Assembly (NCBI GenBank): GCA_026415395.1
Contig: JAOAHD010000007.1
Location: forward strand, 855,972 to 919,971
Direction: 5' to 3'
Length of the DNA stretch: 64,000 nucleotides
From: Candidatus Binatia bacterium
GTDB lineage: Bacteria > Desulfobacterota > Binatia > HRBIN30
The translations under genes and the position numbers were made by a program. Below are positions 6,635 to 45,289 of the stretch, piece by piece (positions within the stretch are counted from its first letter, which is position 1; the number at the start of each line of letters is the position of its first letter). The notes beneath the pieces are model-generated. The model made no database searches and had not been told where the DNA came from. It saw only the letters and a list, made by a program, of their open reading frames with translations.

Positions 6635-7820
6635 TTAGCGTTGCCATTGCAGCAACCAGTCGAGCACCGCTTCGGCGCGGGCGCGGCTGTTGATTTGGCA
6701 GTGGATGGCTTCGCCAGTTTCCCAGACGAATTGCCGGTTGCTCGGCTGCCGCTGCGCAAGCGCCTGCGCCAAGGCTCGGGTGATGCCTGCTGTAACCAAA
6801 GGGTCGCGAGTCGAGTAAGCTAAATAAATCGGTGTGTCGATGCCACGCGCGAGCAGTTGCGTTCCCAGGCTTTGCGCGGCTGCATTTTCCCACGTTCCGT
6901 AATGGGCGAGATAAAACGCGTCGAGAACATCCGTGTAGCCGGGGATGCCTTGCAATAAACCGAACAGGCCCGGCGGATCTTCTTTGAATCCGAGAAGGTA
7001 GTCTGCAGGGCTGTCCACAGCCGCTGCGGCTACCCCATGTGGATTGGCAAGCAAGAGCTGGGCGGTGCGCTGGCCGCCGCCGCTGCAGCCGAAGGAGTAC
7101 TCTCGACTCCCGTCGTGTGGAAAGCGCTGCCGGTACCAGTCCCACACGAAATCGTCCATGCTGCGCCCATATCGCGGGGCCTTGATGTAGTAATCAATGA
7201 CCTCCCCGCGGTGATGACCGCCATCGCCCCAGCAGTTTCCTGGCACCACGATGCCCCACCCTCGCTCCAAGGCAGCGGCCGCAATGGGGCCGCTCGACTC
7301 ACCGCGCAACCCGCGCACCGCACCGCCGCGACTTAAAATCTCGATAAAGCCGACAAAGCTGGGTAGGTCTTGCAAGAGTTGCAGCGCGGTCCGCGGAGCG
7401 GCGTGGACAAACAAAGAGGCGAGTGCCTCGATAAAGTCCAAGCCGTTGCCGTGAAACAGCATGAGCACTGGTGCACCAGGGTTTTGCGGCGGCACAGCCA
7501 AGAACACAGCGGGCGGGCCGGGCGACTCGGTGGCTTCGGGAATGTGCAAGTAGTCAGTGGTGTCCGTGCGCACACAAGGGAAGGCCGGCACTTCATAGAT
7601 TTCGGCGGTGAACTCGCGACCAGCCGAAAGCGCAAAATTGTCGACTTCGCCGCCAGCGCGGGCAATGCGCCAGGTCCAAATGCGACGTGCTTGTGGGCCC
7701 GAGGATGCAGGAGAAGCGCTCTCCCCATCATCGCCGCAGCCGGCGACCAAAACGCAAAGAGCCGCAAACAGTGCTACGGAGCGCGGCCACTCGCGCCAAC
7801 CTTTCCTCGCTCTCTTTGCC
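6635..7820 (-). CDS. secreted lipoprotein alpha/beta-hydrolase (esterase / PHB-depolymerase-like)
   Basis: The start at the ATG rc of 7818-7820 gives MAKRARKGWREWPRSVALFAALCVLVAGCGDD, a lipobox signal ending LVAGC. Downstream are the nucleophile elbow FGCSGGG and LMLFHGNG. The upstream extension in the track ORF (to 8080) is non-coding-looking. Confidence 0.7.
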
Positions 7821-30720: not shown

Positions 30721-30839
30721 AAGCCTCAAACGAGCCCCATGTAGCTGGGCACAAATCAGTGTGCAGGGAAAACGGCAGCAAAGCAACTCAGTTTACCACC
30801 CTCGTTTGGGCTCGGAGGGACGGATACACTCACACGAAC

Positions 30840-31601
30840 ATGACTCGGGTCGTCGACAGCGAACAAGAGATCCTGGTGCGCACGGTTGCGGTTTCCCGCG
30901 TGTACCGCCGGGGTGTAGATGAAATCCGCGCGCTCGAACGCGTAACGTTGCAAATTCCGGCCGGTCGTTTCGTGGCTTTTATGGGACCCTCGGGTTCGGG
31001 CAAATCCACGCTAATGAACCTGTTAGCCGGCCTCGATCGCCCCACCTCCGGCGAAGTGTGGGTGGCCGGCCAGCGGCTGGACGTCTTGGACGAAGACCAG
31101 CTCGCTGCTTGGCGGGCGCGGCATGTGGGCCTGATCTTTCAGTTCTTCAACTTGATTCCCGTACTCACCGCGCGGGACAACGTCGCCCTCCCCCTGTTAC
31201 TCACACCTCTCGACAAGCGTGAACGACTGCGGCGGGCGGAAATTGCGCTGCGCATCGTCGGCCTGCGGGATCGCATGCATCATTATCCGCGCACGCTCTC
31301 GGGTGGGGAGCAGCAGCGGGTGGCCATCGCACGGGCGCTGGTGACCGACCCCGATTTGATCGTTGCCGACGAGCCCACCGGCGATCTCGATGCCCGCAAT
31401 GCCGAGGCGGTGTTGGGGCTCTTGCGCCGGCTGCGAACCGACTTTGGGAAAACCATTATCATGGTGACCCACGACCCCCGCGCCCTGCGCTTTGTGGACA
31501 TGGCCTTTCACCTCGACAAGGGCACTTTGTTGGAGGGTGAAGAGGCGGCACGCGCGCACGAGGCGATCTTGGTGGCAGCAGGGGCTGGCCCTCGTGGGTA
31601 A
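30840..31601 (+). CDS. ABC transporter ATP-binding protein (MacB/LolD/FtsE-like)
   Basis: The motifs are Walker [11 protein letters not shown]-loop, signature [15 protein letters not shown], Walker [13 protein letters not shown], and H-loop. Confidence 0.9.
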
Positions 31602-31612
31602 GGGAGTGTGCC

Positions 31613-32779
31613 ATGAGTTACGTGCAGTTGGTTACCGCCAATTTGCTACGCAACAAGCTCCGCGCTGCGCTTACGTTCGGGGCCGTGAGCCTGGCGGTGA
31701 TGCTCGTGGTGTTCCTGCTCACCATGCCGGCGGGCATGGACGCGCTCCTGAATTCCATCGCCAGCAACACCCGGGTTTCTGTGCACAACAAAGCCGGTAT
31801 TGTTTACTCGATGCCCTACGCATATGCCCGCAAGATCCGCCAGGTCGAAGGTGTGGCCGCTGCGGTGGGAACTGCCTGGTTCGGCGGCGCCTACGAAGAG
31901 GAAGGGCGTGTCACCTTTCCCAACTTCGTTGTGGAAGCTGAACACGTGGGCGCGGTCTACCCCGATTATGGCATCGCCCCACAAGCCTTAGACGACTTCC
32001 GCCGTTACCGGGATGGCGCACTCGTGGGGCGGCAAACGATGAAGCGCTACGGGTGGAAGGTGGGCGACCGCATTACCCTCAAGAGCACCGTGTGGGCCGT
32101 CGACCTCGATTTGCGCATCGTGGGCGAAATCCCGCTCGAACGCTCTCCGGTTGTGTGGATCCAGCGGGCTTACCTGGACGAGGCCTTGCTTGCGCAGCGT
32201 GGGCAGGGGCTAGGCATCGTCCATGTGGTGTGGGTCCGGGTGCAGGACCCCAACCGCGTCGACGAGGTGATGCGTTCGATTGACGACATGTTTCGCAACA
32301 GCGAAGCCGAGACTGCTTCGGAAACAGAGAAAAGCTTCTTTGGTAACTTCTTCGGTTCCCTGAAGGGCTTCATGACGATCGTTTTGTTGGTCACCTTCTT
32401 GGTTGCCATTTGCGTGGTGGTGATAGCCGCAAACACTGCCTCGATGTCGATCCGGGAACGAGGGCGAGAAATTGCCGTGTTTAAAGCGCTGGGCTTTCCG
32501 CGCCGTGCGGTATTTGCTGCGCTGTTGGCTGAGTCAGCGTTGTTGTGCACCGCGGCGGGGCTCACGGGAGTGGTGCTGGCCTATGGCTTTACCCACGGGT
32601 TGCGAAGCTTTGCTGCTGTAATTCCGGCGCTCGGTCCGCTGGGGAGCTTTCTCGTTACCCCCGGAGTGGCAGCGCAAGGTGTCGCTCTTTCCCTGGTTGT
32701 TGGCCTCCTTGCCGGGTTGGTTCCCGCTTGGGGCGCGGCCCGCAAACCGCTGGTGGAGACGCTGCACGAAATTTTTTAG
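31613..32779 (+). CDS. ABC transporter permease, FtsX/MacB-type (permease 1)
   Basis: It has an N-terminal TM, a large periplasmic domain, and a C-terminal FtsX-type 3-TM bundle reading FKALGFPRR. Confidence 0.8.
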   Translation: MSYVQLVTANLLRNKLRAALTFGAVSLAVMLVVFLLTMPAGMDALLNSIASNTRVSVHNKAGIVYSMPYAYARKIRQVEGVAAAVGTAWFGGAYEEEGRVTFPNFVVEAEHVGAVYPDYGIAPQALDDFRRYRDGALVGRQTMKRYGWKVGDRITLKSTVWAVDLDLRIVGEIPLERSPVVWIQRAYLDEALLAQRGQGLGIVHVVWVRVQDPNRVDEVMRSIDDMFRNSEAETASETEKSFFGNFFGSLKGFMTIVLLVTFLVAICVVVIAANTASMSIRERGREIAVFKALGFPRRAVFAALLAESALLCTAAGLTGVVLAYGFTHGLRSFAAVIPALGPLGSFLVTPGVAAQGVALSLVVGLLAGLVPAWGAARKPLVETLHEIF

Positions 32780-32784
32780 CGCGG

Positions 32785-33984
32785 ATGGGAACGATGCTCG
32801 GTGGAGGGCTGTTGCCGCTGTCGTACAGCATCAAGAATCTCTGGAGTCGGCCGGTGCGGACGGCGATGACCGTGACCGTGGTTGCCCTGGTCGTCGTCGC
32901 GTCGAGCTTATTTTTGGGGCTGATCACTAGCTTAAAACGCACGCTCGTGAGCACCGGGCATCCTTTGAACTTGGTGGTGATGCGCAAAGGATCGGATAAC
33001 GACGGCGCTAGTGCACTCTCACAGGCAGCGTATCAAGCGATTCGCTTTTACGACGGGATTGCGCGGAATGCGGCGGATCAGCCCTTGGTTTCGCCGGAAC
33101 TGGTGGTGCAGCCGTTTTTTTGGACCATCGAGGGCGGCCGGGAAAATGTGCTCGTGCGGGGTGTGGAACCAATTGCTCTCGAAGTGCACGACCAAGTGCA
33201 GATCATTGCCGGGCGCATGTTTCAGCCGAGCGCAGCCGAGGCGATTGTTGGAAAGTCGCTCATCGGCCGGTACCAGGGAGCCGAGCTGGGAAGCGAGCTG
33301 CGCTTCGGACGCGGCGGTTGGAAAGTGGTCGGGGTGTTCAGTGCGGAGGGCTCGTCCTTCGAGAGCGAGGTGTGGGTGGACGTGCGCGAGCTCGCGAACG
33401 ATGCCAAGCGTCCGCTGCCATACTCCGCCATTCGGCTGCGGGCAAACACGGAAGCCGACCTTTGGGCCCTGAAGGCGCGGATCGAGGCGGACCCGCGCTA
33501 CGCGTTACAAGCTGAGCGCGAAACCGAGTACTACGCCAAGCAATCCGAGTCGGCAAACTCCCTCTACGTGCTCGTAGTGGCGATTGCGCTCTTCTCGGGC
33601 ATCGGCGCCGGCTTCGGGGCGGCGAATACAATGTATGCGGCCGTGCAAAACCGCATCGCGGAGATTGGCACGCTGCGCGCCCTGGGGTTCTCGCGCACGA
33701 GCATTTTGCTCGCCTTTCAATTGGAAGCGCTGTTCCTAGCGGTGAGTGGCTTTGCTGTGGGCGCGGTTGGAGCGGTGGTCCTGGCCGATTCGCTCGGTCG
33801 CTGGCTGCGCGGCATTGGATTCGGGGCCGCTACGTTTACGACCAATGTCGTGCAACTGCGTATCAGTGCTGGAGACCTGATTGTGAGCCTTTGCCTCACG
33901 CTGGCGATTGGATTGATTGCGGGTCTTGGTCCGGCGATGCGTGCGGCCAGACTGCCGCCGATCGAGGCGCTGCGCCGGGGGTGA
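32785..33984 (+). CDS. ABC transporter permease, FtsX/MacB-type (permease 2)
   Basis: It starts with MGTMLGGGLLPLSYSIKNLWSRPVRTAMTV and has the same architecture as permease 1. The C-terminal TM bundle reads LRALGFSRT. Confidence 0.8.
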   Translation: MGTMLGGGLLPLSYSIKNLWSRPVRTAMTVTVVALVVVASSLFLGLITSLKRTLVSTGHPLNLVVMRKGSDNDGASALSQAAYQAIRFYDGIARNAADQPLVSPELVVQPFFWTIEGGRENVLVRGVEPIALEVHDQVQIIAGRMFQPSAAEAIVGKSLIGRYQGAELGSELRFGRGGWKVVGVFSAEGSSFESEVWVDVRELANDAKRPLPYSAIRLRANTEADLWALKARIEADPRYALQAERETEYYAKQSESANSLYVLVVAIALFSGIGAGFGAANTMYAAVQNRIAEIGTLRALGFSRTSILLAFQLEALFLAVSGFAVGAVGAVVLADSLGRWLRGIGFGAATFTTNVVQLRISAGDLIVSLCLTLAIGLIAGLGPAMRAARLPPIEALRRG

Positions 33985-34041
33985 GGTGCGCCCGAAGCGG
34001 CAGCCTCGTCGCTCAGAACACTTCTTGTTAAAGGATGCATC

Positions 34042-35247
34042 GTGGCTGACGACAAAACGACACACGAGTCGCTGAGCGATGCACTGGCGGCGTTGCGCCT
34101 GCCGCGTGAGGACTCTAGCGTGCTTCCTCGCCGGCGCCGCCGCTGGCTGTGGATGGTGCTCGCCTTGGTCGCCCTCGTTGCCCTGCCGTGGTGGTGGTGC
34201 CAGGGGCGGGTGGTAGAGGTGGCGGTTGCCGAAGTGACGCGGATTAGGCCCTCTCAAGCAGGCCCTCTGCCGGTGTTGTCGGGCTCTGGGTACATCGTCA
34301 CGGGGGAGCGTTACGTGTCCATCGGCGTGCGGGTGCCTGGGCGGATCGAGCGCTACTTCGTCGAGGAAGGACAGAGCGTGCGCAAGGGCGACCCCTTGGT
34401 GCAATTGGACGACCGTGACTATCGCGCCCAGGTCGCGCGAGCGGAGTCGCAACTGGCACTGGCGCGCGCCCAGGCGGAGTTGGCCGAGGCAGAACTGCGG
34501 CGGGTACGGACGCTGCGCAGCCAAGGTGTGGCCTCGCAGCAAGAGCTCGACGTTGTGGAAAGCCGCGCCAGGGTGGCGCGCGCCACGGTGAAGCAAGCTG
34601 AGGCAGAACTGCAGCAAGCGCGAGTGAATCTCGACTACACCGTGCTGCGCGCCCCGACGGACGGGGTGATTTTGGCCAAGACCAAAGAGGTCGGCGAGAT
34701 TGCCATCCCGGGTGGATTTGCGGGTTCCGGCGACCTCATCCGCATGGCGAACTTGTCTGACCTTCGCGCTCAGGTGGACGTGAACGAAGCGGATCTGAAT
34801 CGCGTGTTCTTGGGGCAGAAAGCCCTGGTGACGCCGGACGCGTACCCCGATGCGAAATACGAGGCTGAGGTCGTGAAGTTTTACCCACAGGTGGATCGCT
34901 CGAAGGGGACGTTGCGCATCGAGGTGCGCATCCTCGCTCCTGACGACAAGCTCCTCCCCGACATGAGTGCCCGGGTGACCTTCCTTGCCGATGTTGCCGC
35001 GGCCGGGGACGGTGAACCTCTGGTGTTTGTGCCGAGTGCCGCGGTGCGGCGCAATGAGCGTGGTGAGGCCTTTGTGTGGGTCGTGAACGGAGAGCGCGTA
35101 CACCCGCGAGCGGTCAGGCTCGGCCCGACTGTGAGCGGACGCGTGCAAGTGCTTGCCGGCCTGGAAGGCAACGAGCGGGTCGTGGTGAATAACGTGCCGC
35201 TGCGCGAGGCTCAGCGGGTGCGTGTGGTTCAGGGCGGGCAGGCGTAA
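34042..35247 (+). CDS. HlyD/MacA-family periplasmic adaptor (membrane-fusion) subunit
   Basis: There is one N-terminal TM, a long coiled-coil (QLALARAQAELAEAELRRVR), and barrel-sandwich/beta-barrel domains. Confidence 0.85.
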   Translation: MADDKTTHESLSDALAALRLPREDSSVLPRRRRRWLWMVLALVALVALPWWWCQGRVVEVAVAEVTRIRPSQAGPLPVLSGSGYIVTGERYVSIGVRVPGRIERYFVEEGQSVRKGDPLVQLDDRDYRAQVARAESQLALARAQAELAEAELRRVRTLRSQGVASQQELDVVESRARVARATVKQAEAELQQARVNLDYTVLRAPTDGVILAKTKEVGEIAIPGGFAGSGDLIRMANLSDLRAQVDVNEADLNRVFLGQKALVTPDAYPDAKYEAEVVKFYPQVDRSKGTLRIEVRILAPDDKLLPDMSARVTFLADVAAAGDGEPLVFVPSAAVRRNERGEAFVWVVNGERVHPRAVRLGPTVSGRVQVLAGLEGNERVVVNNVPLREAQRVRVVQGGQA

Positions 35248-39938: not shown

Positions 39939-40453
39939 CTACCTTGCCGCAGGAGGGATCGAACTTCGCCGGTCTCCCGCAGGAGCTCGTTCATCGTGAC
40001 GATCCAAGGGCGCGCGGGTGCGCTCGTGGATCGATGGTCTTCATCGCTTCCGGTGTCGGCCTGTTGTTCCGTGGGGTTCTGCCCATCACGCACAGCGGTG
40101 AGAAAATTCTTGTGGCGTTCGAGCAGCGCACCAAACTTCCGTAAGGAAGCCCGGGGAGCGCCTCCCTCTTGACTGTGGAGAAACTGCTCAGCTTCTTGAA
40201 TTTCGCGACTATAGCGCTCGAGCGCTTCGTTTACGTCGCCCTTTTCCTCCACGGCTCGTAAGAGATCCACGGCCGCGGTGGTCACCCGACCCAAGTGCTG
40301 CTCGGCGCGTGCCGCGTAGGATCGGTCGGAGCACCCAGAACTGCCGAACGTCAGGATGACACTGAGGACCGCGCACCACGGGCCCCTGGCCCGCCACGGC
40401 GGCCTAGCCGCTGTACATTTGCTCGATGAGGCTAGCGTATTTCTCATGCACAA
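39935..40453 (-). CDS. hypothetical lipoprotein
   Basis: The signal/lipobox-like N-terminus ends ...AVLSVILTFGSSGC. The mature part is hydrophilic. Its stop overlaps the start of the CDP-alcohol transferase gene by 4 bp. The start is uncertain (M at 40453 or 40447). Confidence 0.45.
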   Translation of the reverse strand: MCMRNTLASSSKCTAARPPWRARGPWCAVLSVILTFGSSGCSDRSYAARAEQHLGRVTTAAVDLLRAVEEKGDVNEALERYSREIQEAEQFLHSQEGGAPRASLRKFGALLERHKNFLTAVRDGQNPTEQQADTGSDEDHRSTSAPARPWIVTMNELLRETGEVRSLLRQGS

Positions 40454-42227
40454 CTCGCCGCTTCATTTTCATCGTCGGGGTGAGTTCGCCGGAGTCCACC
40501 GTCCACTCCTGCGGCACGATGGTGAACTTCTTGATGCGTTCCACCTGGCTGAGACTTTGGTTCACTTCGTCGATGTACCCCTGCACGACGCTTTGCACCT
40601 TCGGATGCTGAGCGAGCACGCTCAAGTCGGCTGGCAGATCATTTTGCTGGGCCCAGGCGAGGGTGGTCTCGGGATCGAGGACAATGAGTGCGGACACAAA
40701 CGGCCGCCGGTCACCAATCACGCACGCTTGCCCGATCAGCGGCTTCTGCTTGAGCATGTTTTCGATATTGGACGGTGCGATGTTCTTACCGCCCGCAGTG
40801 ATGATGATTTCCTTTTTCCGGTCGACGATGCGGATGTAACCTTGCTCGTCGATCGTGGCGATGTCACCGGAGTGCAGCCACCCGTCCTCATCGAAGGTTT
40901 GCCGGGTGAGCTCCGGATCTTTGTAGTAGCCCGCAGTTACGTTGCCACCGCGCACGAGGAGTTCCCCGTCGTCGGCAAGTTTGACCTCGACTCCCGGTAT
41001 CGCCTGGCCCACAGTGCCGATCTTGATGGCGCCAGGACGGTTCCAAGAGGTCGGACCCGTATCCTCCGACTGGCCGTACACTTCCGCAATCGGCACACCG
41101 ATCGCGCAAAACCACTCAATCAGTTCCGGGGCAATCGGAGCTGCCCCGCTACTGGCAATCTTGATTGCGTCGAGCCCGACGCGCTCGCGGATCATGGCGG
41201 TGATGAAGGCGGTGTTTTGCACCTGCTCGGCCAATTCGGCAGGGACCGGTTCGCCTTTCTGTTCGAGGCGAATTTTCTGCAGGTTTACTTCGATGGCGTG
41301 CTTGACCATCGACCGCTGCGGCTCGTCGAGCTTCTCAATGGCAGCAACGAGTCCCGCGTGCAGTTTCTCCCAGATCCGTGGGACTGCAAAAAAGAACTCC
41401 GGGCGGACTTCACGCAAGTACTCAGCAATTTGTTGGGGGTTCGGGCAGAAGTAGCAGGTGGAGGCGCTTTTCAGGTGCAGGTAATAGCCAGCCATGCGCT
41501 CCGCGATGTGCGCCAATGGCAAGTAGGAAATGTGGCGCATGCCCGGGGTACGGGGGAACAGCCGGTCGAGGGACTCAGCCGTCCAACATACATTATAGTG
41601 CGTCACCATCACGCCTTTGGGGGGACCGGTTGTACCCGAGGTGTAGATCAAGGTTGCGAGGTGCTCGGGTTTCACTGCTTTCGCGCGCGTCTCGACCTCG
41701 GCGAGCGTTTGGGAGTCCGCACGTGCCTCTAGTTGGGAGAGCGTGACCACACCAGCTTCGCCCGCCAAACTCTCCCCCTGGTCGATCACCACAATGTGCC
41801 GGAGCTTGGGAAGCTGGGAGCGGATGCACGCCACCTTGCGGTACACGTCCGGATTCTCCGCCACAAAGACCACGGCCTCGCAGTGGTTGAGGATGTACTC
41901 GATTTGTGGAGGAGCGAGCGTGCTGTAGACCGTGACCGGAATCGTCCCGGCATGCAGGGCGGCAAGATCGATCAAGTAATGCTCCGGGCGATTGGAAGCC
42001 AAGATGCCGAGAAATTCTCCGGGCTTGACCCCCAGTTTGATCAGGCCCGCAGCGAGTGCACGCACACGCTTGCCGTAGTCGCGCCAGTTGAGAGCATGCC
42101 AAGCCCCGTCTGCCTTCCACTTGAGAGCGTCGAGCTCCGGGTAGCTCTCCACGGCGTTCTGAAATAACGTGCAGACGGTTTGTCCTGCGACTTTCCGGTC
42201 GATATCCGCGCGTTCATTAAGGCTCAT
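40404..42227 (-). CDS. long-chain-fatty-acid--CoA ligase (AMP-binding, FadD-like)
   Basis: The AMP-binding motif LIYTSGTTGPPKGVM and downstream blocks YGQSE, HSGDIA...DEQGY...IVDRKKE are present. The protein is 607 aa. Confidence 0.9.
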   Translation of the reverse strand: MSLNERADIDRKVAGQTVCTLFQNAVESYPELDALKWKADGAWHALNWRDYGKRVRALAAGLIKLGVKPGEFLGILASNRPEHYLIDLAALHAGTIPVTVYSTLAPPQIEYILNHCEAVVFVAENPDVYRKVACIRSQLPKLRHIVVIDQGESLAGEAGVVTLSQLEARADSQTLAEVETRAKAVKPEHLATLIYTSGTTGPPKGVMVTHYNVCWTAESLDRLFPRTPGMRHISYLPLAHIAERMAGYYLHLKSASTCYFCPNPQQIAEYLREVRPEFFFAVPRIWEKLHAGLVAAIEKLDEPQRSMVKHAIEVNLQKIRLEQKGEPVPAELAEQVQNTAFITAMIRERVGLDAIKIASSGAAPIAPELIEWFCAIGVPIAEVYGQSEDTGPTSWNRPGAIKIGTVGQAIPGVEVKLADDGELLVRGGNVTAGYYKDPELTRQTFDEDGWLHSGDIATIDEQGYIRIVDRKKEIIITAGGKNIAPSNIENMLKQKPLIGQACVIGDRRPFVSALIVLDPETTLAWAQQNDLPADLSVLAQHPKVQSVVQGYIDEVNQSLSQVERIKKFTIVPQEWTVDSGELTPTMKMKRRVVHEKYASLIEQMYSG

Positions 42228-42897
42228 CCAGACGGTCCCTCCACGTTTTGCGAAAATGTGCGAGGGAACTTAACCGCAAGGGCTTATGGGCGGCAATAGG
42301 TTGGGGGAGGAGGCCGTCTCTTTGCAAGTCCGCCACCACGGTGCCCGCAAGTTCCGCAAGCAAACGTTGATCGGCGTACACCGGGTCTTGCCGTGGGAGG
42401 AGAAGCGAGGGGAGCCAATGCCAAATTGTGATGCGCTCGCGGTACGTGTATGCGTGCTCCCTCCCTTCTACGCTTTCCGCTTGTACAGCGACCTCGAGCG
42501 TAGTTGATTCCCGGAGGGGGATGATGCCGATGCTCATTCCAAAGAGCACAGCGTTGGCGAGCATGGCAGCCGTTGAAGGCGGGGCCCCGCGGTTCAGGCG
42601 GACGGTTAGAGCGAGATGCCTTCCCTCCGTCGCTCCCGGGTCGACTACGATTGCTCCCGCGTCTTGGAGCGCCGTAACAAGGGCGGCACGCAAACGGCCA
42701 TGCTGCGGATCGCGGCGGTGGCCCGCACCGCCCGACTCAAAGGACAACCACACAACCGGACTTGTGCGACTGAGCTGGCCGGGTGTAGGCTGGCGCACTG
42801 CCAACCAACCCGAACGGTGCACGTAACACCCTGAGACGGAGAAAGTCCCGCCGATAAGCAGCACTGCCAGCCACGCGCGTGACCGATGACTCTGCAT
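42217..42897 (-). CDS. hypothetical lipoprotein
   Basis: The ATG at rc 42895-42897 has a GAGGAGGG RBS. The signal is MQSHRSRAWLAVLLIGGTFSVSGC, ending in lipobox SGC. Confidence 0.55.
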   Translation of the reverse strand: MQSHRSRAWLAVLLIGGTFSVSGCYVHRSGWLAVRQPTPGQLSRTSPVVWLSFESGGAGHRRDPQHGRLRAALVTALQDAGAIVVDPGATEGRHLALTVRLNRGAPPSTAAMLANAVLFGMSIGIIPLRESTTLEVAVQAESVEGREHAYTYRERITIWHWLPSLLLPRQDPVYADQRLLAELAGTVVADLQRDGLLPQPIAAHKPLRLSSLAHFRKTWRDRLDEP

Positions 42898-43171
42898 ATG
42901 CCCTCCTCGGCCGTTGTGTGTCTTCAGCTTAAACAATGCGCGGTGGCCGATGGCAAGCAGAGCTTCCAACCTCTCATCCGGCCCGAAGTGGTCGCCGCCG
43001 GGAGATGGTACTCGTGGTCCGCGCCGCTCGGAGCGATCGATCGGGATCGGGGACGGTTGAAGAACACGGGCGTTGTAAGCAGGGCGGGGGTCACGCGACC
43101 AATGATTGCCTCACCCTCGGCGTGAGAGTAAGGTGCGGATGCTCCGTAGAAGACGAGGAGGGAACGAGAAC

Positions 43172-43433
43172 GATGAAGGGCGCAAAGGGTCTGGCGATTG
43201 CGGCTGCCGCAGCGGCGTTGTTTGCTTCCAAAGCTTTAAGTGCGGGAACTCACGAAGGTGCGGCTGAAGCGAAGAAAGTGAAGTGCGAGGGTGTGAACGA
43301 GTGCAAGGGGAAGGGCGAGTGTGGTGGTGCCACCCACGACTGCGCGGGCAAGAACGAGTGCAAGGGTAAAGGCTGGGTGGAAATTTCGGCCGAAGAGTGC
43401 AAGGCCAAGGGTGGCAAGATCAAGCAGGACTGA
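43172..43433 (+). CDS. Sec-signal-peptide, 6-Cys RiPP precursor of the bufferin type (BufA-like; DUF2282 / BUF_6/12Cys-like)
   Basis: The protein is 87 aa: MKGAKGLAIAAAAAALFASKALSA | GTHEGAAEAKKVKCEGVNECKGKGECGGATHDCAGKNECKGKGWVEISAEECKAKGGKIKQD. A signal peptide is followed by a Lys/Gly-rich core with repeated C-x-G-x-N-E-C-K-G-K-G units. A GAGGAGGG RBS sits 10 nt upstream. It lies immediately upstream of the DUF692 and DUF2063 genes. Confidence 0.75.
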
Positions 43434-43466
43434 ACACGTGCTAGCATTCTTGCGGCCGGGGCTGCC

Positions 43467-44321
43467 TTGGGGTTTTTGGGTTTTGGCGTCGGTTTGCGGC
43501 CGAAGCATTATCCGGAAATTCTCGGTCACTGGCCTAAAGTAGATTGGTTCGAGGTGATCACCGAAAATTTCCTGGTCGCGGGCGGCCGCCCGCGGCGGGT
43601 TTTGGAGCAGGTGCGAGCCCACTACCCGCTAGTGCTGCATGGTGTGTCCTTGTCGGTGGGCTCGGCGGATCCGCTGAACTTCGACTACCTCCGACAGGTG
43701 CGCGATCTCGCCAGGCGGATTGAGCCTGAATGGCTTTCGGATCATCTGTGCTGGACAGGCGTCGGCGGTGTGAATCTCCACGATTTACTTCCCTTGCCTT
43801 ACACCGAAGAAAGCTTGCGGCACGTGGTCACTCGCATCCAACAGGTGCAAGACTTCTTGGGGCGGCAAATCTTGCTCGAAAACGTGTCTTCTTACTTGGA
43901 GTTCGCGCATTCGACGATGAGCGAGGCCGAATTTGTGGCCGCGGTGGCCAGCCAAGCGGACTGTGGCATCCTGCTCGATGTGAACAACCTGTACGTCAAC
44001 GCGTTCAATCACGGGTTCGATGCCCTCGAATATCTGTCGGCCTTGCCCGCGAAGCGGGTGCGGCAAATCCATTTGGCCGGGTATGCCGACCGCGGAACGT
44101 TCCTGCACGACACCCACGACCACCCGGTGTGGCCCGCCGTGTGGGATTTGTACCGTGAGGCCATTGCCCGCTTTGGGGCAGTTGCAACGTTGATCGAGTG
44201 GGACGCTGCCTTGCCCCCGCTTGCCACCGTACTGGCTGAGGCGGAGCGAGCGCGGGCGATAGCGCAGGAAGTGTTGGGTCGCGGTGGTCGAGCTCAAGCG
44301 TGTGCAGTGGTTGCTCAGTGA
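43467..44321 (+). CDS. DUF692 / UPF0276 multinuclear non-heme iron oxidase (MNIO; MbnB/BufB-like)
   Basis: The TTG start lies 33 nt after the precursor stop, in the same frame. The family signatures are LGFGVGLRPKHYPEIL, DWFEVITENF and HGVSLSVGS, inside a TIM-barrel-like fold. The protein is 284 aa. Confidence 0.8.
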   Translation: MGFLGFGVGLRPKHYPEILGHWPKVDWFEVITENFLVAGGRPRRVLEQVRAHYPLVLHGVSLSVGSADPLNFDYLRQVRDLARRIEPEWLSDHLCWTGVGGVNLHDLLPLPYTEESLRHVVTRIQQVQDFLGRQILLENVSSYLEFAHSTMSEAEFVAAVASQADCGILLDVNNLYVNAFNHGFDALEYLSALPAKRVRQIHLAGYADRGTFLHDTHDHPVWPAVWDLYREAIARFGAVATLIEWDAALPPLATVLAEAERARAIAQEVLGRGGRAQACAVVAQ

Positions 44322-45111
44322 GCTCATCCGCGCGCCGGAGGGAGTGGCCCCGGCCGTGGCTGGGCTCTCGCCGGACGCGCGAGCCTTATGGGAGGGGCTT
44401 GTGCGGCCCTACGGCCAGCTCGACGCAGTGGCGCGGCTCGACATTTACGCCAACATGTACTTCTTCCGCATCCGCGATGCTGTGGCGGATGATTTCCCGA
44501 CCCTGCGTGCCACGATCGGAGCGGAGCGGTTTCACAACCTCATGACCGACTACTTGCTCGAACACCCCTCACGCTCGTTTACGTTGCGCGATGTCGGTCG
44601 AGCGCTGCCTGCGTTTTTGCGCCAGCACTCGTTGTTGCACGAGTGGCCCTGGCTTGCGGATTTGGCGGAGCTCGAGTGGGCGGTGGTCGAAGCGTTTGAC
44701 GCAGCCGATCGTCCGCCGGCTGGTGAGGCTGAATTGGCGCGGGTTCCGGCTGAAGTATGGGGGCAGTGCACCCTGCTCTGGCACCCCTCGCTGCGCGTCC
44801 TGGCCTGTGGCTACCCGGTGCACCTCCCGTGGCAACGCTGGCAGAACGACGAAGAACCGGGGGAGGTCTCCGCAGCACAGACGTGGCTTCGTATCTGGCG
44901 GCGAGATGAGCGTGTGTTCGTAACTGCGGTGAGCCAGGAAGAGGCCCACATCCTTAAAGAGCAAGAGAGCCTCGGCGCTTTGGCCGAACGGCTAGCGGCG
45001 CAGTGGGGCGAAGAGGCTGTGGCGCAACGACTGGCAACGTGGCTCGCGGAGTGGGTGCAGGCGGGAATTGTTTGTGGCTTAGAGCCGCTCAAGTGTCGAG
45101 CACAAACGTGA
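44284..45111 (+). CDS. DUF2063-family partner protein (MbnC/BufC-like)
   Basis: It overlaps the MNIO gene by 38 nt. The family-typical N-domain reads LDIYANMYFFRIRDAVADDFPTLRATIGAERFHNLMTDYLLEHPSRSFTLRDVGRALPAFL. Confidence 0.75.
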   Translation: MVELKRVQWLLSELIRAPEGVAPAVAGLSPDARALWEGLVRPYGQLDAVARLDIYANMYFFRIRDAVADDFPTLRATIGAERFHNLMTDYLLEHPSRSFTLRDVGRALPAFLRQHSLLHEWPWLADLAELEWAVVEAFDAADRPPAGEAELARVPAEVWGQCTLLWHPSLRVLACGYPVHLPWQRWQNDEEPGEVSAAQTWLRIWRRDERVFVTAVSQEEAHILKEQESLGALAERLAAQWGEEAVAQRLATWLAEWVQAGIVCGLEPLKCRAQT

Positions 45112-45289
45112 GATTCATCGAGACGCGGTACTCTTTGATCTTGTTCTTCTCGATCTTTGCCTGAATCCGGGTAACCTCGGCGGCAGTGACTCCGCGCAGG
45201 GTTTTCGTTGCGCGCTTGACGCCTTCTTCAATAGCCTTTTCGATTGTTTTGGCCGAAGCCACAATTTCCGTCACCCGTGCCGTTGCCAT
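45089..45289 (-). CDS. dodecin (flavin-binding)
   Basis: The protein is 66 aa: MATARVTEIVASAKTIEKAIEEGVKRATKTLRGVTAAEVTRIQAKIEKNKIKEYRVSMNLTFVLD. An AAAGGAGGAG RBS lies directly upstream. The track ORF is extended upstream to 45388. Confidence 0.85.
   Translation of the reverse strand: MATARVTEIVASAKTIEKAIEEGVKRATKTLRGVTAAEVTRIQAKIEKNKIKEYRVSMNLTFVLDT

Follow-up and report, generated by a model that had tools for sequence, protein, structure and literature searches.

Gene content and organization of the locus

In a 64-kb stretch of a Candidatus Binatia genome (hereafter the window), positions 43173–45111 of the plus strand carry three genes in the same direction, bufA2, bufB and bufC. They are packed tightly, with a 33-nt gap between bufA2 and bufB and a 38-nt overlap between bufB and bufC, as described in a first-pass annotation of this DNA. 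The features of the locus are as follows:

43106–43134, plus strand: candidate sigma-70-type promoter, TTGCCT-N17-TAAGGT, 38–67 nt upstream of the bufA2 ATG
43155–43162, plus strand: Shine-Dalgarno sequence, GAGGAGGG, with GGAGG at 43157–43161, 11 nt before the ATG
43173–43433, plus strand: bufA2, 86-aa bufferin-2 precursor (NF050166, 456 homologues, invariant columns, purifying selection)
43173–43244, plus strand: predicted bufA2 signal peptide, codons 1–24
43245–43430, plus strand: 62-aa core of bufA2, with cysteines 38, 44, 50, 57, 63 and 76
43284–43316 and 43341–43373, plus strand: duplicated stretch inside the core, with 33-nt copies that are 82% identical and 57 nt apart
43467–44321, plus strand: bufB, 284-aa MNIO (DUF692) maturase, TTG start (NF050167, PF05114)
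44284–45111, plus strand: bufC, 275-aa DUF2063 and RRE-like partner (PME1 type), GTG start (PF09836)

The gene content and order, as well as the family of all three proteins, are established by this analysis. The earlier assignment of a bufferin-type MNIO RiPP locus was borne out by curated models, which were passed by the precursor (NF050166), the MNIO (NF050167) and the partner (PF09836). Among 80 related loci, a precursor homologue was located immediately 5′ of the MNIO gene in approximately 70, and the A-B-C order in these loci was found in Binatia, Legionella, other Gammaproteobacteria, Myxococcota, Bdellovibrionota, Acidobacteriota and Planctomycetota. Two of the related loci (L046 and L050) carried 12-Cys tandem precursors, which fits the family name BUF_6/12Cys.

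The precursor gene and its product

The precursor had been annotated as an 87-aa product starting at 43138; however, this position is out of frame and lies 5′ of the ribosome-binding site. The coding sequence begins with the ATG at 43173, which follows the Shine-Dalgarno sequence, and encodes 86 aa; the nearest in-frame start 5′ of this ATG is a GTG approximately 18 codons earlier. In a MAFFT alignment of the regions upstream of the precursor gene in six related loci, the GGAGG and the ATG formed the sole conserved block. Comparison with four Binatia orthologues revealed 32–47 synonymous versus 7–12 non-synonymous codon changes, and 456 homologues of the protein were found in the database (E ≤ 1e-3). 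The synonymous excess, the number of homologues and the placement 5′ of the MNIO gene indicate that this small ORF is a genuine gene under purifying selection, and this conservation is among the established results.

The precursor (sequence MKGAKGLAIAAAAAALFASKALSA/GTHEG..., the slash marking the predicted cleavage site) scored 83.8 bits against the Cu_RiPP_BufA2 equivalog NF050166 (cutoff 60, E = 7e-24), and its residues 7–83 aligned to positions 2–78 of the 79 model positions, end to end. Among Pfam families no match was obtained at E ≤ 1, and thus none to PF10048 (DUF2282). Accordingly, of the two precursor families that had been proposed for an HMM search, BUF_6/12Cys was the one recovered. 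The cleavable Sec-type signal peptide that had been described was also predicted here, by rule and by family alignment. It has a basic n-region (K2/K5) and an Ala/Leu h-region with a Kyte-Doolittle value of 2.5 for residues 7–17. The Ala at position –1 (Ala24) is conserved in 99% of homologues, with L, V, T or A at –3, and the signal peptide contains no lipobox Cys.

The six cysteines (38, 44, 50, 57, 63 and 76) were invariant in 63 homologues and conserved in at least 99% of 116. In the former set, C38, N42, C44, G48, C50, C57, G59, N61, C63, K64, G65, K66, G67, C76 and G81 were all invariant, and a similar conservation of columns was observed in the 116 aligned sequences. The reiterated C-x-G-x-N-E-C-K-G-K-G units reported for the core are real: there are two of them, C-E-G-V-N-E-C-K-G-K-G and C-A-G-K-N-E-C-K-G-K-G, encoded by the two copies of the 33-nt direct repeat. 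The duplicated CxGxNxCKGxG unit is kept family-wide, in hundreds of homologues from many phyla, and so are the richness in Lys and Gly and the 6-6-7-6-13 Cys spacing.

On the other hand, the view of this precursor as an unusually Lys- and Gly-rich, divergent subtype with evenly spaced Cys pairs was contradicted. Its K+G fraction (0.337) was near the median of 120 homologues (0.312) and below their 95th percentile (0.36), and its Cys spacing of 6-6-7-6-13 was the commonest pattern, present in 42 of 78 related precursors from Binatia to Legionella. Because the Cys spacing is modal, the key columns are invariant and the alignment to NF050166 is end to end, the sequence comparisons place BufA2 near the family consensus.

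The AlphaFold model of BufA2 was weak (pLDDT 61.9), with C38 in the first β-strand (36–39) and C76 in a short helix (73–78). The placement of these two residues in the low-confidence model matches the bufferin disulfide topology and may lend it weak support.

The MNIO enzyme BufB and its partner BufC

The second gene had been taken for a DUF692/MNIO protein, and the model searches agreed: BufB, which contains LGFGVGLRPKHY and DWFEVITENF, scored 380.5 bits against PF05114 and 385.3 bits against NF050167 (MNIO_BufB; cutoff 310). Its scores against sister equivalogs were clearly lower, at 268.3 for HvfB (cutoff 360), 107 for ApyH, 61.1 for MbnB (TIGR04159; cutoff 325) and 39 for ChrH. In the PDB, sequence matches were found to 3BWW (3e-48), TglH (2e-24) and MbnB (2e-8). 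The Fe ligands of MbnB are His54, His90, Glu133, Asp163, Asn166, His192, Asp208, His210 and Glu239 (PMC9060507). Eight of these nine align with identical residues of BufB (H58, H93, E138, D171, N174, H202, D215 and H217), and the ninth, Glu239, corresponds to E244, as placed via the conserved LIEWD motif. The conservation of the metal ligands is thereby established. Since no exact database match to the product starting at TTG-43467 is on record, the start codon of bufB is uncertain.

The third gene encodes the DUF2063-type partner that had been suggested, with 66.7 bits against PF09836 (cutoff 27.2). The score of BufC against the Pfam NGO1945_C model was 20.9 bits, below the cutoff of 27. It aligned full-length to NF050145 (HvfC) at 84.4 bits, below the cutoff of 142; HvfC was the sole NCBIfam partner model that matched BufC. 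The AlphaFold model of BufC (pLDDT 94.8) establishes the partner fold, matching TglI (8HI7_A; TM 0.67, E = 1e-7) and NGO1945 (3DEE; TMt 0.70, E = 7e-5); the Foldseek comparison with MbnC gave E = 0.1 and TM 0.31. An identical 275-aa protein (100%) from a Candidatus Binatia MAG is named 'DNA-binding domain-containing protein' in NCBI. A role of BufC as a DNA-binding regulator was rejected because its model resembles TglI and NGO1945, and the present identification corrects the older label in the source record.

Upstream region and gene neighbourhood

We propose the sigma-70-like element at 43106–43134 as a candidate bufA2 promoter. A pattern search found TTGCNT-N17-TANNNT upstream of the precursor in five of six close Binatia loci; when the 150 nt upstream in the window were shuffled, 0.85% of the shuffled sequences contained it. 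The element scored under the threshold of a generic promoter scan. No conserved operator or ECF promoter was found upstream of bufA2 in the MAFFT alignment of the six loci. A terminator-like hairpin between bufA2 and bufB (43456–43470) was rejected as an attenuator: four terminator-like hits were found where 3.0 ± 1.8 would be expected by chance, and shuffled versions of the intergenic RNA fold at least as well (z = +1.31). Rfam yielded no match at gathering thresholds over the whole 64-kb window.

Among the scanned predicted ORFs of the window, we found no DoxX gene, no gene for CopA, Cus, a multicopper oxidase or CueR/CsoR, and no ECF sigma/NrsF (sigma/anti-sigma) genes. The absence of copper and ECF/NrsF genes from the window neither supports nor refutes a copper role of BufA2. 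The lack of a DoxX gene was thus correctly noted, but it is not a peculiarity of this locus: the founding buf2 operon, that of Caulobacter vibrioides, also 'lacks a bufD1-like gene', and even Buf1 can do without DoxX (PMC11626156). Moreover, a DoxX-looking membrane protein, judged by N-terminal sequence only, followed bufC in only approximately 7 of 80 related loci.

The dodecin and DUF35/thiolase genes described after bufC are present; dodecin is convergent with bufC and overlaps its 3′ end. Dodecin stays beside bufC even in a related locus in which both outer flanks differ (L081). Two other neighbours, a divergent putative lipoprotein of 250 aa (42217–42969, minus strand) and a minus-strand acyl-CoA synthetase, were rejected as cluster members: their synteny is limited to the three closest genomes, and in L081 and L084 other genes take their place.

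One could also imagine that the Binatia Buf2 peptide, rather than detoxifying copper on induction, is made constitutively and acts in the periplasm as a redox buffer or as a store or chaperone of copper. The close convergent pairing with the gene for dodecin, a flavin-buffering protein, which is conserved in the lineage, could then reflect a functional link between the buffering of flavin and that of copper or redox state. The sigma-70-like candidate promoter, the lack of ECF/NrsF or copper genes nearby and the retained dodecin are consistent with this idea. However, short-range synteny among related genomes explains the promoter type, the missing copper genes and the kept dodecin equally well, and we regard the idea as very doubtful.

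Comparison with known systems

We compared the locus with characterized MNIO-dependent systems. The closest likeness is to bufA2-bufB2-bufC2 of Caulobacter vibrioides (CCNA_03001–02999), which likewise comprises three genes without DoxX and a precursor with a Sec signal peptide. In Caulobacter Buf2 a signal peptide precedes a core of 61 residues that contains six Cys (PMC11626156), and the two systems share a core of approximately 61–62 residues, the six Cys, a BufB-type MNIO and a DUF2063 partner. The Binatia precursor and its MNIO both score above cutoff against the NCBIfam equivalogs that take their names from the Caulobacter Buf2 system. The printed Caulobacter numbering (Cys24/Cys50) does not match the 38-residue span from CysI to CysVI observed here, and the cysteines were compared by description only. 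The two systems differ in that the host is Candidatus Binatia and not an alphaproteobacterium, the window contains a sigma-70-like promoter candidate instead of a SigF/NrsF-type regulator, and the 3′ end of bufC is overlapped by the convergent dodecin gene.

Bufferin 1 (BufA1, a DUF2282 protein, with BufB1, BufC1 and the DoxX protein BufD1) shares with the Binatia locus the enzyme pair and the logic of a signal-peptide precursor. An outer disulfide, conversion of central Cys to thiooxazoles and periplasmic copper binding would also be shared, as predicted by analogy. However, the Binatia precursor does not match PF10048 and has six Cys rather than four, and therefore does not belong to the Buf1 type; the locus also lacks a DoxX gene and adjacent sigma/anti-sigma genes.

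The systems for oxazolin (HvfA/B/C), fontiphorin, gonophorin and bulbicupramide ('captophorins') share with the Binatia locus the pair of an MNIO and a DUF2063/RRE (PME1) protein; the action of this pair on Cys beside Lys/Gly to give copper-binding thiooxazoles would be a further common trait. BufB and BufC can be aligned over their full length with HvfB and HvfC, scoring below the model cutoff in both cases (268.3/360 and 84.4/142). Captophorin precursors contain EGKCG-type Lys-Cys pentamers, whereas the Binatia precursor has the Cys-Lys arrangement NECKGKG in a folded 6-Cys domain; its core contains no EGKCG repeats, and it falls outside the oxazolin/Buf_EGKCG (HvfABC) family.

The methanobactin enzyme MbnB resembles BufB in its MNIO TIM-barrel and the nine matching Fe-ligand residues, and MbnA/MbnB/MbnC yield a copper chelator by Cys oxidation, as is predicted for the Binatia locus. 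In contrast, the Binatia partner is a DUF2063 protein and not MbnC, BufB scores 61.1 against an MbnB cutoff of 325, and the precursor is an 86-aa protein with a signal peptide, unlike MbnA, a short leader-core peptide. The Binatia product would be a retained mini-protein containing thiooxazole, whereas methanobactin is a secreted small chalkophore with oxazolone/thioamide groups. The locus is therefore not a member of the methanobactin (MbnABC) class.

Finally, TglH/TglI of the 3-thiaglutamate pearlin pathway are related through TglI, the best structural match of BufC, and TglH, which BufB matches at 2e-24. TglHI, however, removes the Cys β-carbon from the C-terminal Cys of a scaffold peptide, and precursor type, chemistry and biological role all differ from those of the Binatia locus.

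Proposed function and alternative explanations

Taken together, bufA2, bufB and bufC in all probability form an operon for the biosynthesis of a bufferin of the Buf2 (BUF_6/12Cys) family, which would sequester copper in the periplasm through thiooxazoles. From homology to Caulobacter Buf2, we infer the sites and the chemistry of Cys modification, the disulfide, the periplasmic location and the copper role, as follows. The 86-aa precursor would be made with its Sec signal peptide and, before export, BufC, with its helical DUF2063 and C-terminal RRE-like domains, would present it to BufB in the cytoplasm. BufB, a putative multinuclear non-haem iron oxidase, would turn the central C44, C50, C57 and C63 into 5-thiooxazole heterocycles by O2-driven four-electron oxidations. 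The modified peptide would then leave the cytoplasm through Sec and lose its signal peptide by cleavage after Ala24, and a C38–C76 disulfide would staple a small β-strand/helix fold. The mature 62-residue mini-protein would be kept in the periplasm, where its thiooxazoles would sequester Cu(I)/Cu(II) and buffer copper stress. The predicted monoisotopic mass of the core is 6375.00 Da unmodified and approximately 6356.86 Da when mature (–18 Da). The Caulobacter Buf2 product differs by –18 Da, with CysI and CysVI unmodified and the four central Cys each at –4 Da; it absorbs at 305 nm and is induced by copper (PMC11626156).

We considered the possibility that the biosynthesis is unchanged and the role differs, the peptide binding another soft metal (Hg/Ag/Zn/Cd), protecting against oxidative or sulphur stress, or serving in the periplasm as a copper store or as a chaperone for copper enzymes. 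The failure to find copper-homeostasis or ECF/NrsF genes in the 64-kb window and the sigma-70-like candidate promoter are compatible with this, as are the MerC-Buf2 fusions carried by mercury loci (PMC12452194). In addition, a related MNIO/DUF2063 cluster of Microbulbifer was neither expressed nor copper-responsive (PMC12538549), so the physiological role may differ between lineages. However, in Caulobacter copper, but none of Fe, Zn and Mn, induces the two characterized bufferin operons, and each of them aids growth under copper stress (PMC11626156), while every characterized thiooxazole peptide of this class binds copper (PMC13097082). Because BufA2 lies near the family consensus, its sequence gives no grounds for expecting different ligands. 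We consider a different role unlikely.

Oxazolone/thioamide pairs of the methanobactin kind, in place of 5-thiooxazoles, are much less probable still. BufB is homologous to MbnB with a matching Fe ligand set, the two kinds of product are isomers that are difficult to distinguish, and oxazolin was at first assigned as oxazolone/thioamide. Nevertheless, re-examination gave 5-thiooxazole for oxazolin, fontiphorin, gonophorin and the bufferins, and PME1-dependent MNIOs broadly install 5-thiooxazoles (PMC13097082); the absorbance of Buf2 at approximately 305 nm also contrasts with that of methanobactin at 340/390 nm (PMC13097082; PMC11626156), and against the MbnB equivalog (cutoff 325) BufB scores just 61 bits.

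It is scarcely credible that the product of the small ORF remains unmodified, as a Cys-rich periplasmic protein containing three disulfides, with the MNIO and DUF2063 proteins acting on another substrate or the latter being a DNA-binding regulator. This reading accords with the 'DNA-binding domain-containing protein' name in the source record and with the sizeable share of Buf precursors that have no adjacent MNIO gene (PMC12452194), but not with the adjacency of precursor, MNIO and DUF2063 genes in approximately 70 of 80 loci across phyla, with the match of the BufC model to the peptide-presenting partners TglI and NGO1945 rather than to transcription factors, or with the requirement of both BufB and BufC for bufferin 1 modification (PMC11626156).

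The bufferin family, its chemistry, its architecture, including three-gene forms without DoxX, and its distribution were already known from work of 2024–2026; curated HMMs recognize every part of the Binatia locus, which raises no new question. The locus, very probably a canonical Buf2 bufferin operon, would thus add one more lineage to a very widespread RiPP family, and BufA2 and its enzyme pair could serve the comparative biochemistry of thiooxazole formation.

Identification and layout of the locus

By sequence comparison, the three-gene locus is a near-consensus operon for bufferin 2 (Buf2), and belongs to an already described family. The first-pass annotation had correctly recognized it as a bufferin-type MNIO RiPP locus (43138-45111): the precursor and the MNIO enzyme scored above curated equivalog cutoffs, and the published three-gene architecture of the founding Buf2 operon of Caulobacter vibrioides is the same. 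The genes are arranged head to tail on the + strand, as follows:

43157-43161, + strand: GGAGG, Shine-Dalgarno sequence of bufA2, GAGGAGGG ahead of the ATG
43173..43433, + strand: bufA2, precursor CDS, ATG start, 86 residues, MKGAKGLAIAAAAAALFASKALSAGTHEGAAEAKKVKCEGVNECKGKGECGGATHDCAGKNECKGKGWVEISAEECKAKGGKIKQD
43467..44321, + strand: bufB, MNIO/DUF692 enzyme, TTG start, 284 aa
44284..45111, + strand: bufC, DUF2063-type partner, GTG start, 275 aa

These CDS coordinates bear out the earlier description of three co-directional genes with a 33-nt gap (bufA2-bufB) and a 38-nt overlap (bufB/bufC). Only the start coordinate and the product length required correction, the observation being otherwise exact: position 43138 is out of frame and 5΄ of the ribosome-binding site, the CDS begins at 43173, and the product has 86 rather than 87 residues.

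The generic promoter scan upstream of bufA2 found nothing, and in an alignment of six upstream regions conservation was limited to the ribosome-binding site and the ATG. A pattern search returned one element:

43106-43134, + strand: TTGCCT-N17-TAAGGT, candidate promoter, 38-67 nt before the bufA2 start codon

Five of six close relatives carry the pattern TTGCNT-N17-TANNNT upstream of the precursor, compared with 0.85% of shuffles. This suggests a candidate sigma-70-type promoter, in contrast to Caulobacter, where control is known to be of the ECF (SigF) type. A hairpin-like site between bufA2 and bufB was unsupported, and the Rfam search of the window returned nothing.

The BufA2 precursor

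We found 456 homologues of bufA2 at E ≤ 1e-3, and a homologue lies directly 5΄ of the MNIO gene in approximately 70 of 80 related loci. Compared with four orthologues, bufA2 displayed 32-47 synonymous and only 7-12 non-synonymous codon changes; by these comparisons the small ORF is a real gene. Its product scored 83.8 bits against NF050166 ('BufA2 family periplasmic bufferin-type metallophore'; cutoff 60) and its alignment spans the model from one end to the other, positions 2-78 of 79. The Pfam search, DUF2282 included, gave no match at E ≤ 1.

The six Cys residues (38, 44, 50, 57, 63 and 76) and the reiterated C-x-G-x-N-E-C-K-G-K-G units reported earlier are present, and the units, two in number, are also visible as a 33-nt direct DNA repeat (43284-43316 and 43341-43373, 82% identical). 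The proposal that the precursor is a divergent subtype, unusually rich in Lys and Gly with evenly spaced Cys, was not sustained, because these features are the family signature. The K+G fraction of 0.337 is within the family range (median 0.312, 95th percentile 0.36 among 120 retrieved homologues, 116 of which contain exactly six Cys). Shared by 42 of 78 precursors adjoining BufB homologues, 6-6-7-6-13 is the most frequent Cys spacing and is found in Binatia, Legionella, other Gammaproteobacteria and Planctomycetota; precursors of Alphaproteobacteria are one residue off (6-6-7-6-14). In two alignments, one of 116 and one of 63 sequences, C38, N42, C44, G48, C50, C57, G59, N61, C63, K64, G65, K66, G67, C76 and G81 were invariant, and G40, K45, G46, H55, D56, W68, K79 and G80 were conserved at ≥90%. 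Judged from these alignments, the precursor lies near the family consensus and is no divergent subtype.

Among the related loci from other genomes (L handles), the following arrangements are known variants within the family, whose name, BUF_6/12Cys, covers both six-Cys and 12-Cys forms (PMC11626156; PMC12452194); the tandem 12-Cys versions are those of Porticoccaceae:

L046 3482-4000; L050 76-546; L052 5406-5864: 12-Cys tandem-domain precursors, Porticoccaceae
L019 5196-5856; L027 5190-5837: two tandem precursor genes
L047 3198-3464: precursor 3΄ of bufC, not 5΄ of bufB

The signal peptide was judged by rule and by family alignment. The n-region is basic (K2, K5), the h-region consists of Ala/Leu (mean Kyte-Doolittle 2.5 over residues 7-17), and the c-region ends at Ala24, which is kept in 99% of homologues, with A/V/T/L at position -3. 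The best reading is the Sec-type peptide proposed before, with predicted cleavage at ALSA|G leaving G25-D86 as a 62-residue core, compared with 61 residues in Caulobacter Buf2 (PMC11626156). Since no Cys occurs at +1, the precursor is not the lipoprotein variant, which accounts for approximately 16% of Buf2 precursors (PMC12452194).

The BufB enzyme and its partner

The assignment of gene 2 to DUF692/MNIO was confirmed by scores above cutoff for both PF05114 (MbnB_TglH_ChrH; 380.5 bits, cutoff 25) and NF050167 ('MNIO family bufferin maturase'; 385.3 bits, cutoff 310). Scores for HvfB (268 bits), ApyH (107), MbnB (61) and ChrH (39) were below their cutoffs (360, 400, 325 and 600, respectively). 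In the HMMER alignment with MbnB (7TCR), BufB residues H58, H93, E138, D171, N174, H202, D215 and H217 lie opposite His54, His90, Glu133, Asp163, Asn166, His192, Asp208 and His210, and E244, inside the conserved LIEWD motif, corresponds to Glu239; in MbnBC, these MbnB residues are described as ligating Fe1, Fe2 and Fe3 (PMC9060507). The closest BufB relatives (77-80% identity) come from Candidatus Binatia MAGs and 'bacterium HR30'.

Gene 3 scored 66.7 bits against PF09836 (DUF2063; cutoff 27.2), and its full-length alignment to HvfC scored 84.4 bits, below the cutoff of 142. Because the sequence search of the PDB with BufC found no match, its structure was predicted from a 51-sequence alignment (pLDDT 94.8, pTM 0.89). 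Foldseek comparison of this model with the PDB gave three matches at E ≤ 0.001: the MNIO partner TglI (8HI7_A, E 1e-7, TM 0.67; and 8HCI_A) and the DUF2063 protein NGO1945 (3DEE, E 7e-5, TMt 0.70); the match to MbnC was weak and fell below these three. The earlier identification of a DUF2063-type partner is therefore upheld by family and predicted fold, and the TglI/NGO1945-like model indicates a peptide-presenting partner (BufC/'PME1') rather than a DNA-binding regulator. In NCBI, a Candidatus Binatia MAG encodes a protein with 100% identity to BufC, labelled 'DNA-binding domain-containing protein' after the legacy DUF2063 naming. Both family and predicted fold identify it as a RiPP maturase partner, and the public annotation is therefore out of date.

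Genomic neighbourhood

None of the immediate neighbour genes relates to metals. Upstream, the opposite strand encodes a putative lipoprotein and an acyl-CoA synthetase; downstream are a dodecin, a DUF35/thiolase pair (both noted previously as following bufC), a GH31 glycosidase and ValRS. The features concerned are:

42217-42969, - strand: 250-aa ORF, divergent, with an 11-nt overlap with the acyl-CoA synthetase gene (40404-42227) at the 5΄ end of the latter
45089-45289, - strand: dodecin gene (66 aa, PF07311), convergent with bufC, 3΄ ends overlapping by 23 nt (45089-45111)
L001-L003 ~7617-7817; L081/L082 10069-10269, - strand: dodecin counterparts

The 250-aa ORF had no Pfam match and carries a lipoprotein-like signal (…LLIGGTFSVSGC…) after an internal Met; L002 and L003 have orthologues, but in L081 and L084 there is no linkage of this ORF to buf. 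Each of the five close Binatia loci that continue beyond bufC has the convergent dodecin directly after it, and L081/L082 keep the pairing despite different genes on both outer sides; dodecin was not seen beside buf operons outside Binatia. Either simple synteny or a functional association could account for the pairing.

A scan of the remaining predicted ORFs in the window found no DoxX, ECF sigma/NrsF, CopA/Cus or multicopper oxidase genes. The missing DoxX gene had been noted as a peculiarity; its absence stands, but it is normal for the Buf2 subtype. The founding Caulobacter operon 'lacks a bufD1-like gene', even the DUF2282-type bufferin Buf1 can dispense with DoxX (PMC11626156), and a DoxX-looking membrane protein, judged by N-terminal sequence alone, lies 3΄ of bufC in only approximately 7 of 80 loci.

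Separately, a MacB-type ABC efflux set (ABC ATPase, two FtsX/MacB permeases and a HlyD/CusB-like membrane-fusion protein) is located at 30759-35247 (+), approximately 8 kb upstream of the buf operon, and L084 has a similar MacB/HlyD set upstream of its own.

Proposed maturation and function

Caulobacter Buf2 was recovered as the core without its signal peptide, with a mass shift of -18 Da and absorbance near 305 nm; the shift is -4.03 Da at each of the four central Cys, with CysI and CysVI left unmodified and probably joined by a disulfide (PMC11626156). The operon is induced by copper and supports growth in copper stress, and Buf1 modification requires both BufB1 and BufC1 (PMC11626156). The PNAS 2024 text and preprint number CysI and CysVI as Cys24 and Cys50, which are 26 apart, compared with a span of 38-39 residues in the window precursor and most relatives; this is either a numbering slip or a real difference.

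The modified peptide may plausibly have another physiological role, be it in binding a different metal, in redox stress or in storing copper: the window offers no link between the operon and copper, and a related Microbulbifer cluster is not copper-responsive (PMC12538549). Oxazolone/thioamide chemistry is disfavoured by the current literature, which generally assigns 5-thiooxazoles to the products of MNIO-PME1 pairs (PMC13097082). Conserved synteny and the predicted BufC fold contradict both an unmodified disulfide protein and a regulatory role for the DUF2063 protein.

We infer the bufferin mechanism for this locus by homology, the family assignments excepted. BufC would present BufA2 to the iron enzyme BufB, which would convert C44, C50, C57 and C63 to 5-thiooxazoles; the modified peptide would then be exported by Sec and cleaved after A24. 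The predicted core mass is 6375.00 Da unmodified and approximately 6356.86 Da when mature. C38-C76 would close the small fold: a low-confidence AlphaFold model of the precursor places C38 in a strand (36-39) and C76 in a helix (73-78), consistent with the disulfide between strand and helix that has been described in bufferins. Once in the periplasm, the product would chelate copper.
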